DNA of 64,000 nucleotides. Origin: Bdellovibrionales bacterium (GTDB lineage Bacteria; Bdellovibrionota; Bdellovibrionia; Bdellovibrionales; UBA1609). This document shows, piece after piece, positions 19,508-23,239 of the stretch. Numbering within the stretch: the stretch's first letter is position 1; each line of letters opens with the position of its first letter. The notes under the pieces are model-generated. The model had not been told where the DNA came from. It saw nothing but the letters and a program-made list of their open reading frames with translations, and searched no databases. Location: the NCBI GenBank assembly GCA_020435005.1, contig JAGRAE010000001.1, positions 609-64,608 of the forward strand. Direction: 5' to 3'. Made by a program: the position numbers and the translations under genes.

Positions 19508-20809
19508 ATGGATTCGTTGAACGTGAGACATATACAATCTAAATTACACTTCTGTAATAAGGCCTTTAGCGCCATTGAAGTTGTAATAGCTCTCAGTGTC
19601 TCTGGTGTATTAATGTTTTTTGCACTAGGCTTTCCGTTACTTTTAAAAGATCAGTTTGATAAGCAAAAAGCCACAATTCATCGACTACAACTCCAATCAG
19701 AAATCCAAGAACAAATTGCTCAGCCAGAAGCTTGTAAAATTATGTTTACAGATCAAAGCTTTAATGTTGAGGAAGAAAATCCTCAAAACTTAAAGATCAC
19801 ATTACCAGGAAACAACAAAATTTTGGAATCAGGCACGAGATATGAAAATCTTGAAATTAGCAATATCAATGTACAAACAAACCAGCGTATTATGCCGGGA
19901 ATAAATCCCGAGCCAGTAGCTACAACTATTACCATTAAACTTAAAAATGCTTTTGGCAATAAGGATGAGCTTAAAGACATAAAACTATTTAAAACTTTTT
20001 TTGTAAACTCAGAGGAAAGTAAAATTCTTTATTGTCTTAATAATTCTAACTTGTATTCAATGGACAGTGTGGAGTGTGAAAACTGTGGTGATTCTAGCTC
20101 AAGTTCAAATGATTTATCTAACAGAGACTACTATTATCCTTTAGATACAGCTTATTGTCGTGATACAAATTTAGGTCTTGAAGTCTTTTCGCAGGTGACA
20201 CCAAATAATTTGCCAACTGTGCAGCCTACTGTTGGCACGACTCTATCACATAGATTTATTATGAGACACAAAGCCGATCAAAGAATCATATCTTGCGATA
20301 CTGGTTGGCAACAACAAGAAGTCAGCAATATCGATGATCCACGAAAGTGTGGGTCTCTACTTATAGGCCACCCTAATTATAACGGCAAAGGCATGGACTA
20401 TCCATACTTAAATTATTTTCACATTTGTCATACTAGTTATTTACCAGAGGGAAATGATTGGATTTGGAATAATGAAGATTACAAGTGCGTCCCTACAAAC
20501 TGTAAAATGTTTGATGTCGGCATGGGCTCCGGTGGTTTTTATGGAATGTATTCGGGTGATTATCCTTTATTACTTACATTCAATGATACTTATACAACAG
20601 ATAATTGTGAATACAAAGACTCAATGGCTACACATACTCGAACTACTAATGTTGATTCCAATTATAAGTGTATGAGTTTTTGTAAACTGAGAGGTGCCGA
20701 GTATGGCATCAGTAATTTTAGCTGCAGATATAATGGAGTTTGTTTGCAACACAGTCATGGCCTTAATCCCTTTTTTAATTACAGCAACGATTGGCAGGGG
20801 TGCCTATGA
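19508..20809 (+). CDS. Modular type IV pilin-like protein 1 of 3 (pilin head + Ser-rich linker + Cys-rich C-terminal module)
   Basis: NKA|FSAIEVVIALSVSGVLMFF prepilin motif with Glu5. Cys76/Cys176 pair, SSSSS linker, and C-terminal motif CMSFCKLRGAEYGISNFSCRYNG. Confidence 0.7.
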   Translation: MDSLNVRHIQSKLHFCNKAFSAIEVVIALSVSGVLMFFALGFPLLLKDQFDKQKATIHRLQLQSEIQEQIAQPEACKIMFTDQSFNVEEENPQNLKITLPGNNKILESGTRYENLEISNINVQTNQRIMPGINPEPVATTITIKLKNAFGNKDELKDIKLFKTFFVNSEESKILYCLNNSNLYSMDSVECENCGDSSSSSNDLSNRDYYYPLDTAYCRDTNLGLEVFSQVTPNNLPTVQPTVGTTLSHRFIMRHKADQRIISCDTGWQQQEVSNIDDPRKCGSLLIGHPNYNGKGMDYPYLNYFHICHTSYLPEGNDWIWNNEDYKCVPTNCKMFDVGMGSGGFYGMYSGDYPLLLTFNDTYTTDNCEYKDSMATHTRTTNVDSNYKCMSFCKLRGAEYGISNFSCRYNGVCLQHSHGLNPFFNYSNDWQGCL

Positions 20810-22107
20810 TAAAAAACAATCAAGGCTTCTCCTTGCTTTTAATTTTAATACTATTGGGTTTGACCAGTTTAAGTTTAATTTCAGTTTTCAGATTTTTAGA
20901 GTACCAGACAGAAGCTTCTCAGTTAAATAATCTGAGAGCCTTCAAAAGCGAAATTCAGCAAAAATTAGAGTACTTAATGGCTGATCAAAGCCAATGCCGC
21001 ACCCAATTTGTTGATCTAACTATGCCAAATACAGGACAATTTATTGAAGTTGAATTGGATTATCCTGATCTCAATGAGAAATTAAAAGCCAACGCAAAAC
21101 TAGATAATTATATTGTAGATAAAATTGAGTTAGAAAATACTGAAACACTTTCTGAGTCAGATCAAGAATCTTTTTTAAATACCCATATCAAAGTATTTTT
21201 ATCCAGCGAAGCTACTGAACGCCACGAAATAGCACCCATATACGTGTCAAAAATTCTTAAAATAGATACTAATACAGATGCGATTACAGACTGTGTGGGC
21301 AGTAAGGATGTGGCAAGCTTTTGTCGAGCCTTTACTAAAAAATATGATCCAGAATCAAATCCCAGATGTAGAGATTTAACGGAAGAAGAACTGCAAGCTC
21401 TTGGACAGACTAGTGGCAGTAGCTCTGGAGGCACTAGTAGTGGAGACAGTAGTAATCAAGGTGGCAGTTCTACTGATAAGTCAATTGAGTTAGAATATGC
21501 CTCGTGCAATCCAATGAATTCTATAATGCCAGCTGGTATTAATGGGCAAGGTTTGTATGTCTTTGGCATGAGACGCAAGGATACGGGGGAAACACATTTT
21601 GCTCTAAGAAGTATACGAAACAAAGCCCCATGTGATCAAACGTTATGGGATTCATTTATTAGCTCGACATCACCCATTTGTAATTTTGATGAAATTGGAA
21701 GCAGTTATCATGTATATTCGGCTGAAGAAACTGCCAATGGTTTTAAAGTCTACAACCAAACTAACGGGGCCAGCTGTGAAGCTTTTTGGCAGGACACTTT
21801 TAATCCCACTCCTATGTCTAGTGCCGCTGGTAAATTGTTTAATTCCACAACAACTTCAATTACACAATCTGATTATAAAGAATATAAAGTTCTTGGTGGC
21901 TACAGGATTTTAAATAGAGATACATGTGAAATGTATACAGACAATTCTTTTAGCGACTGGATTATAAACAAATATGATTCTGTCGGAACCAGAAGAGATG
22001 TCAGCCAAATGAAGGAAACATGTCGTACAGATTGCATACAACAAGCTAGTGACAATGGATTTGCTAGTTTTAATTGTTATTACATGGGGACTCGCGTTGG
22101 ACCATAA
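20806..22107 (+). CDS. Modular pilin-like protein 2 of 3 (lacks Glu5, like GspK/PilX-type minor (pseudo)pilins)
   Basis: MIKNNQG|FSLLLILILLGLTSL. The start ATG overlaps the upstream stop (ATGA at 20806-20809). Cys64/Cys163 pair, linker GSSSGGTSSGDSSNQGGSS, and C-terminal motif CRTDCIQQASDNGFASFNCYYMG. Confidence 0.7.
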   Translation: MIKNNQGFSLLLILILLGLTSLSLISVFRFLEYQTEASQLNNLRAFKSEIQQKLEYLMADQSQCRTQFVDLTMPNTGQFIEVELDYPDLNEKLKANAKLDNYIVDKIELENTETLSESDQESFLNTHIKVFLSSEATERHEIAPIYVSKILKIDTNTDAITDCVGSKDVASFCRAFTKKYDPESNPRCRDLTEEELQALGQTSGSSSGGTSSGDSSNQGGSSTDKSIELEYASCNPMNSIMPAGINGQGLYVFGMRRKDTGETHFALRSIRNKAPCDQTLWDSFISSTSPICNFDEIGSSYHVYSAEETANGFKVYNQTNGASCEAFWQDTFNPTPMSSAAGKLFNSTTTSITQSDYKEYKVLGGYRILNRDTCEMYTDNSFSDWIINKYDSVGTRRDVSQMKETCRTDCIQQASDNGFASFNCYYMGTRVGP

Positions 22108-22108
22108 A

Positions 22109-23239
22109 ATGAAATTTTATAAATCAATTAGTGGTTTTTCTTTGCTAGAAGTAATTAGTGCTCTAGCGATTTTCTCTATTTTAGTGGGTGTTATTACTAG
22201 TGCTTCAGTTTTATTTTTTAATCAAGCTAAGATAACAAAAGCAAAATTACAAAATTCTTTAGTAAAAACTCAGTTACAACAAGCACTTTACTCGCCCTAT
22301 TTTTGTTCGGAAAGTCTCAAAAATATAAACCTACCTTCAGAAGACTTTCCAGAGGAAGGTGTCACATTTGGTTTAAAATTACCATCCAGAGATCTACCTA
22401 TAAATGAAGGTGATTCTATTGATCAAATTGAGTTTGATAAAATTAGAATCTCCAGATTAGAAAATTCGTTTTCTATTTTTAATCAAACTTTAAGCACACT
22501 TACGATAAATTTTGAGTTTAAAGTTTTAAATCAACATCAAACTTATTTAAAACCATATAACCTTATAATCCGAGCACTAATAGATCCAGAGACCGAACAA
22601 GTTACCAGATGTGTAAGTTCGTTAACTGAAGAAGAAGCTTGTGAAAGTTTAGGTGGAAAATATTATCCTGTTGGCTCCGACAAATGTGTGCAGAATCAAA
22701 CAGTAAACAACGAAATAATCACCGAACAAGTAGCAGAAACAATGTCACAATTTAAGTTTGTCGCAAACTGTAGTGATGCCAATAGAAGATATACTTTAAT
22801 TGGCCAATTTGAATTAGATACGACTCTTAATAAAATTAATGAAACTATTTCTATAAAAGTCTTCCATGAGCTCACTCAACAATTAGTATGTGTCAAAAGA
22901 TATATAAATGGATTCGGCGTCGGCTGTAGTGACTTAGACAATAACTTTGAAGTTTCTTCGGATGTGAACGGTGTTTCTGGGCGAGTTGATGGAGTAGACA
23001 TATGTACAGGAAAATGGTACCCACAGTTATTTGGTGATGATATTGTTTGGAAGTTTAATAGCCCTAAACTTAAGACTTCTTGTTTTTGCACTTATAAAGA
23101 ATCTGGTGGAGAATTACAAACATTGTGCAACAACTTACCACCAGATGCAGATATGGTGGCTTGCCAAGCGGCGTGTACGGCCCAGGGGTCTGGAACATGT
23201 TACTATTATGGCAACGATGTCGAAGATTTTGTAGAGTAA
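22109..23239 (+). CDS. Modular pilin-like protein 3 of 3
   Basis: MKFYKSISG|FSLLEVISALAIFSILVGV. The ATG at 22109 lies 1 nt after the upstream stop. Cys66/Cys168 pair, and C-terminal motif CQAACTAQGSGTCYYYG. Confidence 0.7.
   Translation: MKFYKSISGFSLLEVISALAIFSILVGVITSASVLFFNQAKITKAKLQNSLVKTQLQQALYSPYFCSESLKNINLPSEDFPEEGVTFGLKLPSRDLPINEGDSIDQIEFDKIRISRLENSFSIFNQTLSTLTINFEFKVLNQHQTYLKPYNLIIRALIDPETEQVTRCVSSLTEEEACESLGGKYYPVGSDKCVQNQTVNNEIITEQVAETMSQFKFVANCSDANRRYTLIGQFELDTTLNKINETISIKVFHELTQQLVCVKRYINGFGVGCSDLDNNFEVSSDVNGVSGRVDGVDICTGKWYPQLFGDDIVWKFNSPKLKTSCFCTYKESGGELQTLCNNLPPDADMVACQAACTAQGSGTCYYYGNDVEDFVE

Follow-up and report, generated by a model that had tools for sequence, protein, structure and literature searches.

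A 64,000-nucleotide stretch of DNA from a Bdellovibrionales bacterium (contig JAGRAE010000001.1; hereafter the window, whose numbering is used for all nucleotide coordinates) carries on its forward strand three adjacent genes, A, B, and C, that encode type IV pilin-like proteins of modular architecture. Each protein is composed of a prepilin signal, a pilin module, a linker rich in serine, glycine, and proline, and a cysteine-rich C-terminal module of 180–240 amino acids (aa). In translation, each contains one copy of a three-cysteine signature, C-x3-C-x(7 or 13)-C-[RY]-Y-x-G, which belongs to this last module. We propose, with modest confidence, that one operon supplies three modular minor pilins, A, B, and C, which are paralogues of one another and form a heterotrimeric tip or priming complex. 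The three genes are as follows (a slash marks the predicted cleavage site).

19508–20809, forward strand: gene A, pilin-like protein of 433 aa; leader MDSLNVRHIQSKLHFCNKA before FSAIEV, Ala at −1, Glu5 present; 16 Cys in the mature protein.
20806–22107, forward strand: gene B, pilin-like protein of 433 aa; MIKNNQG/FSLLLI, Glu5 missing; 12 Cys.
22109–23239, forward strand: gene C, pilin-like protein of 376 aa; leader MKFYKSISG/FSLLEV; 14 Cys.

The ATG of gene B at position 20806 overlaps the stop codon of A in the form ATGA, is preceded by the Shine-Dalgarno-like sequence AGGGGTG, and agrees with the start of the GenBank protein. The ATG of gene C at position 22109 lies one base past the stop codon of B. 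These two codons are most likely the true starts. The overlap between A and B and the 1-nucleotide gap between B and C imply translational coupling within one tightly packed operon. Promoter and terminator scans gave results at the level of shuffled sequences. The GenBank model of A (KDD58_00100, 398 aa, annotated "hypothetical protein") starts only at Met36, so that it lacks the leader together with half of the hydrophobic helix (19508–19612). The upstream ATG at 19508 is backed by the alignment and by A2, the orthologue of A in the second locus described below, which has a clear G/FSLTE signal. The deposited start is thus 35 codons late and hides the pilin signal, so that the trio cannot be recognized in GenBank as a set of pilins; C is labeled there "type II secretion system protein."

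We built a profile of A, B, and C from which the transmembrane helix was removed and scored it exhaustively with HMMER against 1.84 billion representative proteins. Apart from the query proteins themselves, three sequences were retrieved: P0004 (E = 5.4e-6), P0006 (E = 2.6e-4), and P0005 (E = 3.9e-5). The last one, a repetitive and apparently eukaryotic protein of 2249 aa matching about 75 profile columns, was discarded as spurious. Look-ups of the contigs showed that P0004 and P0006 are encoded by adjacent genes with a third pilin-like gene directly upstream. They form a second A-B-C trio (A2, B2, and C2) in the same order in CP060220.1, a 3.33-Mb metagenome-assembled genome (MAG) of a Pseudobdellovibrionaceae member of the Bdellovibrionales. 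The A-type orthologue had been missed by the exhaustive search because the representative of its cluster is a 101-aa fragment. Blastp comparisons are reciprocal and one-to-one, with about 22% identity for each pair (A-A2, 1.6e-18; B-B2, 8e-18; C-C2, 5e-28). This orthology in the same gene order implies that the triplication is older than the split of the two lineages and that the A-B-C order has been kept since.

Five other contigs contain the second trio, in DNA 100% identical to the CP060220.1 locus, and add no independent lineage. Two GTDB species genome scans and two JGI metagenome scans, seeded with orthologue-pair alignments, yielded no confirmed relative; the six-sequence alignment is too divergent to seed scan patterns. 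Three word-index protein searches returned only self or known members; they also missed exact self matches and are therefore uninformative on distribution. The sequence-only reading that had first drawn attention to the signature proposed that it defines a family. The recovery of the second trio bears this out: a profile search that might have found nothing further led to members in one other Bdellovibrionales genome, and the three cysteines and the final glycine of the signature are present in all six proteins. The family is real, unnamed, very small, and always linked to a pilin signal.

The two loci differ in their surroundings. The window trio is preceded by a gene for GcvP and followed by a gene for an 827-aa protein and then by one for MTAP; the second trio lies between insertion sequence (IS)-like genes on its upstream side and genes for rhomboid and RDD proteins on its downstream side, and the flanks of the two trios show no synteny. 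The guanine-plus-cytosine (GC) content is 35% in the window and 46% in the 21-kb locus of the second trio. Directly upstream of the latter, at positions 6115–8798 of the CP060220.1 locus, two long open reading frames (ORFs), of 419 aa on the forward strand and 384–440 aa on the reverse strand, look transposase-like on reading of their translations, and neither has a Pfam family on record. The second trio may therefore adjoin insertion sequences.

A prepilin-type N-terminal signal is present in all six proteins: NKA/F in A, NQG/F in B, ISG/F in C, ISG/F in A2, SRG/S in B2, and QLG/Y in C2, the residue right after the cleavage site being hydrophobic or a serine. Whether such a signal always accompanies the signature, a check raised at the outset, can thus be answered positively for every known member. 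Glu5 of the mature protein is present in A, C, A2, and C2 and absent from both B types, where it is replaced by Leu in B (G/FSLLL) and by Val in B2 (G/SVLTV). Protein C passes the curated cut-offs of two pilin-signal hidden Markov models (HMMs), with 23.6 bits for PF07963 N_methyl (cut-off 21.2) and 19.7 bits for TIGR02532 (cut-off 16.3). The scores of A2 (17.3 bits) and C2 (19.6 bits) against the pilin-signal HMM are below the cut-off. Other NCBIfam matches, including ComGE, GspG, and GspI, involve only the first 50–60 residues and are far below their cut-offs.

The pilin modules were delimited in C from the secondary structure and the predicted local distance difference test score (pLDDT) of an AlphaFold2 (AF2) model together with the invariant Cys columns, and the equivalent regions were taken in A and B.

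22136–22687, forward strand: pilin module of C, residues 10–193.
19565–20086, forward strand: pilin module of A.
20827–21369, forward strand: pilin module of B.

In the AF2 model of C, residues 9–195 are predicted at pLDDT 72–91 as a 50-residue alpha1 helix (12–61), a four-stranded sheet (strands within 107–170), and a small helix-hairpin. In this model, C66 and C168 would pin the sheet, and C178 and C193 lie in the helix-hairpin. A pilin-module profile compared with PDB sequences matched only the N-terminal alpha1 region (profile positions 2–63) of geopilin, MshA, PilA, and PilE1. Foldseek comparisons with the C model returned no pilins at significant E-values.

The window encodes a fourth pilin-like protein away from the trio. 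Gene D (4773–5681, reverse strand) specifies 302 aa starting with MKVGSKG/FSLIEAV. Its pilin module matches an HMM of the six A-, B-, and C-type modules at E = 2.5e-11, or 1e-3 once the transmembrane helix is removed. It keeps two conserved cysteines of the pilin module (c1 and c2, see below) and a Ser/Gly linker, and its C-terminal part is different and devoid of the signature, with four Cys in total. The product of gene D may belong to the same filament, as a fourth subunit or as an adapter.

The signature itself was located by translation as follows.

20669–20737, forward strand: signature of A, CMSFC-x13-CRYNG, full segment CMSFCKLRGAEYGISNFSCRYNG; Cys 388, 392, and 406, Gly 410.
22021–22089, forward strand: signature of B, CRTDC-x13-CYYMG, full segment CRTDCIQQASDNGFASFNCYYMG; Cys 406, 410, and 424 in the 433-aa numbering.
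23162–23212, forward strand: signature of C, CQAAC-x7-CYYYG, full segment CQAACTAQGSGTCYYYG; Cys 352, 356, and 364.

The three strings and their start coordinates as first reported were reproduced exactly. A regular-expression search of the six-frame translation of the window with a relaxed form of the pattern gave no match beyond A, B, and C. Each protein was shuffled 20,000 times with its composition preserved, and at most 5e-5 of the shuffled sequences contained the strict signature. For the generalized form C-x3-C-x4-13-C-x3-G within 25 residues of the C-terminus, the frequency was at most 1.1e-3 for each of the six family members. The signature is far beyond chance.

The orthologues carry CIAFC-x12-CTYNG (A2), CIANC-x13-CFASG (B2), and CRNVC-x4-CYYYG (C2). 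Several details of the initial description are modified accordingly. The loop, first given as 6–13 residues, is 13 residues long in A and B and 7 in C, and spans 4–13 residues once the orthologues are included. The [RY]-Y pair, retained in C2, is altered in A2 and B2 and is not a trait of the family. The invariant elements are the three Cys and the Gly, and a refined signature for the six sequences would read C-x3-C-x(4-13)-C-x-[YA]-x-G. The statement that the signature closes all three proteins applies to B and C, where 5 and 8 residues follow it. It does not apply to A, in which 23 residues remain and include two more cysteines, C412 and C432.

The signature is the end of a larger module, whose limits together with the linker were set in C from the alignment, the Cys table, and the Cys-column shuffle test described below.

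22691–23236, forward strand: linker and C-terminal module of C, residues 195–376.
20090–20806, forward strand: linker and C-terminal module of A, equivalent region.
21373–22104, forward strand: linker and C-terminal module of B, equivalent region, with a Ser/Gly linker of about 40 aa.

Searches of Pfam, NCBIfam, PHROGs, PADLOC, and PDB sequences gave no match to the C-terminal module. With PDB sequences, the profiles of the globular part, the pilin module, and the C-terminal module all matched only the N-terminal alpha1 regions of pilins. As Foldseek did not cover this region either, the initial impression that it is not a recognized named domain holds. An origin from a phage, a defense system, or a plasmid was considered and rejected, PHROGs, PADLOC, and a plasmid tblastn search being all empty.

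A table of cysteine contexts in the six proteins revealed a framework of about 12 cysteines that is collinear through the whole protein. Its positions and spacings are listed below.

c1: at the end of alpha1.
c2: in the last strand of the pilin module.
c3 and c4: bracketing the hairpin.
c5 to c9: in the C-terminal module.
c10 to c12: the three cysteines of the signature.
c5 to c6: 37–46 aa, in six proteins.
c6 to c7: 12–18 aa, in six proteins.
c7 to c8: 26–32 aa, in five proteins (A2 is devoid of c8).
c10 to c11: 4 aa, in six proteins.

Eight Cys columns and the signature Gly are invariant across the six aligned sequences. Otherwise, c8 is missing from A2, an alternative position, cX, is missing from the B types, and extra cysteines occur in twos. 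The mature proteins contain 16, 12, 14, 12, 12, and 14 cysteines, always an even number. When the six C-terminal modules were realigned, 7 columns had Cys in at least five of the six sequences, compared with a maximum of 4 in 150 shuffles. After removal of the motif region, 4 such columns were left, compared with a maximum of 3 in 150 shuffles. Collinearity of the upstream cysteines beyond chance points to one shared cysteine scaffold in the modules. Around it, little else is kept, in line with the early remark that the C-terminal modules share little obvious identity: outside the motif region, the similarity between paralogue classes is at shuffle level. Profile-profile comparisons with hhalign gave weak matches between classes, with P = 0.004 for the B and C types over 121 columns from c6 to the end, P = 0.005 for the A and B types over the last 38 columns only, and P = 0.19 for the A and C types. 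The module evolves very fast, and the signature is where it is best conserved.

The signature might instead be an autonomous mini-domain of about 25–40 aa, a "cap" carried by three C-terminal modules that are otherwise unrelated. This is how the sequence-only reading had pictured it, as a small cap. The restriction of the hhalign match between A and B types to the last 38 columns, the shuffle-level Smith-Waterman scores between paralogue classes once the motif is removed, and the fact that the similarity between the B and B2 modules lies mainly within the motif region all agree with such a cap. We nevertheless regard it as distinctly unlikely, because three cysteines cannot form a closed set of disulfides and because the upstream cysteines of the six proteins are collinear, spaced at similar distances, and set in similar local contexts. 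In addition, Cys-column conservation exceeds that of all 150 shuffles even when the motif region is left out, the match between the B and C types extends over 121 columns, and the motif was not met apart from this architecture in any search. The signature is thus the last element of a larger framework and not a free-standing unit.

Metal binding, the other possibility raised initially, would involve the three cysteines and perhaps a fourth ligand holding a metal such as zinc. Clusters of three or four cysteines can bind zinc, and zinc sites typically have the spacing C-x2-C. The signature has C-x3-C instead, its loop is of variable length (4–13 residues), and no His, Asp, or fourth Cys is found at a fixed distance in the motif. 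The export and prepilin signals imply folding in an oxidizing compartment, and the cysteine count is even in each of the mature proteins. For these reasons, we favor disulfides over metal and consider metal coordination very improbable indeed.

Two AF2 runs, on full-length C and on its C-terminal module alone, bear on the geometry of the signature; they used one shared six-sequence alignment and are hence not independent. The C-terminal module is poorly modeled in both, the mean pLDDT being 59.5 for the full-length run and 48.5 for the module-only run. Both place C352 and C356 on a helix (349–358) and C364 at the opening of a strand (363–366), at pLDDT 57–76, and the signature segment is the only part of the module above 50. 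The models thus weakly suggest that the signature consists of a helix bearing C-x3-C followed by a strand. The best Foldseek hits against the PDB, E = 0.09 with the full model and E = 0.31 with the module, were both judged meaningless. The predicted arrangement recalls the CS-alpha-beta motif of defensins and scorpion toxins, in which a C-x3-C helix likewise precedes a Cys-bearing strand. However, classical CS-alpha-beta peptides are about 40 residues long and have C-x-C on the strand and two helix-strand disulfides, whereas the strand of the signature bears one cysteine only, that of C-[RYTF]-[YA]-x-G, and the element forms part of a module of 180–240 aa; no match of this kind was obtained with Foldseek.

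These features can be combined in the following model. A, B, and C would be cleaved by a prepilin peptidase and would then assemble, through their alpha1 helices, into a heterotrimer that primes a type IV filament or sits at its tip. In filaments of this type, each Glu5 is paired with the N-terminal end of the overlying subunit, and the known cap minor pilins lack it (PMC10191384). As B and B2 are both devoid of Glu5 while the A and C types keep it, in a conserved three-gene set, B would occupy the apex as the cap subunit. At the tip of the filament, the three related cysteine-rich modules would be exposed as a head able to bind a ligand, and possibly prey. Within each module, the signature would consist of a helix on which C-x3-C lies, a loop of variable length (4–13 residues), and a strand running from the third Cys to the invariant Gly. 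Its three cysteines and an upstream partner, probably c9, would form disulfides by which this terminal helix and strand are stapled to the module core, in the oxidizing periplasm or outside the cell.

Several observations weigh against this model. Neither the 64-kb window nor the 21 kb surrounding the second trio was found to contain a gene of a pilus or type II secretion machinery. Protein A has Ala and not Gly at −1, and its scores (16.1 bits for N_methyl, 15.9 bits for TIGR02532) are just under the cut-offs; B and B2 have no N_methyl match in the Pfam search, and B is below the curated pilin-signal cut-offs. Canonical tip complexes contain four minor pilins that are not mutual paralogues, whereas we have three paralogues. 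When the motif region is removed, Smith-Waterman scores between the C-terminal modules of the paralogue classes are not above those of shuffles. In the AF2 model of C, residues 198–337 are below pLDDT 50, so that most of the module is of low confidence. Finally, the trio is known from two independent lineages, both represented by uncultured MAGs, and the conservation statistics are correspondingly thin.

The distance from assembly genes and the weak scores of A and B against pilin-signal models would also be expected if the pilin-like N-terminus served merely as a membrane anchor or export signal, the proteins being periplasmic or exposed at the surface and never polymerized. This seems quite improbable to us. 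Glu5 is kept in the A and C types and specifically missing in the B types of both lineages, a pattern that is meaningful only in filament assembly (PMC10191384), and the A-B-C order has been maintained at about 22% identity.

The trio could alternatively correspond to minor pseudopilins of a type II secretion system, analogous to GspH, GspI, GspJ, and GspK, whose cysteine-rich modules would contact secreted substrates in the periplasm. The name given to C in GenBank, the weak NCBIfam matches to GspG and GspI at its N-terminus, and the absence of Glu5 in B, as in GspK (PMC10191384), are in its favor. However, the Gsp matches cover only the generic N-terminal helix and fall far short (17.5 vs 88.85 bits and 17.8 vs 44.35 bits), no T2SSK, GspJ, or GspI Pfam domain was found, and the genes lie outside any gsp operon in both the window and the second locus. 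Moreover, pseudopilins are not known to carry modules of 180–240 aa on all three subunits. We therefore judge this assignment unlikely.

The pilus tip complex that we favor resembles several described systems without coinciding with any of them. An architectural parallel is found in the modular type IV pilins PilB and PilC of Streptococcus sanguinis, which likewise associate a class III signal and a pilin module with a short linker and a bulky C-terminal module (PMC8179133). In that species, a trio of minor pilins, PilA, PilB, and PilC, two of them modular, replaces the four-pilin tip set (PMC10191384), and modular pilins with unannotated extra modules are also known (PMC8179133). Our trio differs in that all three subunits are modular and mutual paralogues, in its diderm Bdellovibrionales host, and in the nature of the grafted module, which is cysteine-rich and not a recognizable domain such as a vWA or a lectin. 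With the GspI-GspJ-GspK and PilV-PilW-PilX complexes, which are expected to prime assembly and occupy the tip (PMC10191384), it shares co-encoded minor pilins of which one, here B or B2, is devoid of Glu5. In contrast to these complexes, it comprises three genes and not four, encodes mutual paralogues each with a large extra module, lies away from machinery genes, and shows no sequence or domain match beyond the N-terminal helix; searches of Pfam and NCBIfam with E up to 1 retrieved no T2SSK or PilX HMM. The type IVb initiator pilins CofB and TcpB also combine a pilin module, a flexible linker, and C-terminal beta-rich domains and form a trimer at the tip (PMC8179133; PMC10191384). However, the CofB trimer is made of one gene product instead of three paralogues, and no similarity to it was detected in PDB sequence searches.

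Stand-alone three-gene clusters of minor pilins have been described in predatory bacteria, namely the KilL-KilM-KilN "Tip" of the Myxococcus Kil/Tad apparatus, for which analogues were reported in Bdellovibrio (PMC12075869). The KilLMN tips are predicted to be heterotrimers resting on an alpha1 bundle, with a variable distal domain and numerous predicted intramolecular disulfides (PMC12075869). Our trio is likewise a stand-alone cluster of three genes, for putative minor pilins, in a Bdellovibrio-like lineage. However, KilLMN are homologues of TadE, TadF, and TadG, of the Tad (type IVc) class, and only KilN bears a large distal domain. The six proteins have no Pfam match to TadE, TadF, or TadG at E up to 1 and have signals of the G/FxxxE type, which places the trio, as far as these sequence criteria tell, outside the Tad class.

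The 827-aa ORF downstream of the window trio (23593–26076, forward strand) is separated from gene C by a 350-nucleotide AT-rich spacer, and its product has a signal-like N-terminus. It lies in the region of lowest GC content of the window (29.5% between 24 and 26 kb). No significant Pfam or NCBIfam match was found for it. We considered it as a PilY1-like partner of the pilins, and dismissed this candidate for want of a supporting domain match or of a counterpart after the trio in CP060220.1. As no equivalent gene follows the second trio, the 827-aa ORF is probably not part of the set.

Two other gene clusters were noted in the window. The region 44210–56275, on the reverse strand, is a denitrification-type cluster in this Bdellovibrionales MAG.

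53018–54991, reverse strand: NirS-like cytochrome cd1 nitrite reductase.
55160–56275, reverse strand: NnrS.
46829–48882, reverse strand: COX1-family NorB-like subunit with a cytochrome c subunit.
46042–46842, reverse strand: CbbQ/NorQ ATPase.
44210–46039, reverse strand: VWA NorD-like protein.

The region 38560–42258, also on the reverse strand, is a typical operon of the MoxR/DUF58/TgpA style.

41314–42258, reverse strand: MoxR-type AAA ATPase.
40415–41317, reverse strand: unannotated 300-aa ORF.
38560–40428, reverse strand: TgpA-like transglutaminase membrane protein.

A more specific function can be put forward for the trio, as a tentative possibility. It may represent a previously unrecognized, lineage-restricted tip adhesin, heterotrimeric in composition and carried by a type IVa-like pilus of Bdellovibrionales, in which three fast-evolving domains built on a disulfide framework would form a composite head for prey or substrate surfaces. 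Such an adhesin would be the type IVa counterpart of the Myxococcus Tad "Tip," and its recognition domain would be hypervariable except for C-x3-C...C-x3-G, the one part under constraint. The suggestion that the head binds prey is speculative and is based on the lineage. In Bdellovibrio-like predators, both attachment to prey and invasion depend on pili (PMC3818213; PMC12075869). Because of this requirement, a variable tip head, if it exists, would be a candidate for deciding which prey or surfaces are recognized. If the tip-complex reading is right, the trio would define an uncatalogued domain family carried by pilus subunits and a putative tip complex whose three members are all modular paralogues, in which only the cysteine scaffold has been kept between orthologues that are about 22% identical.

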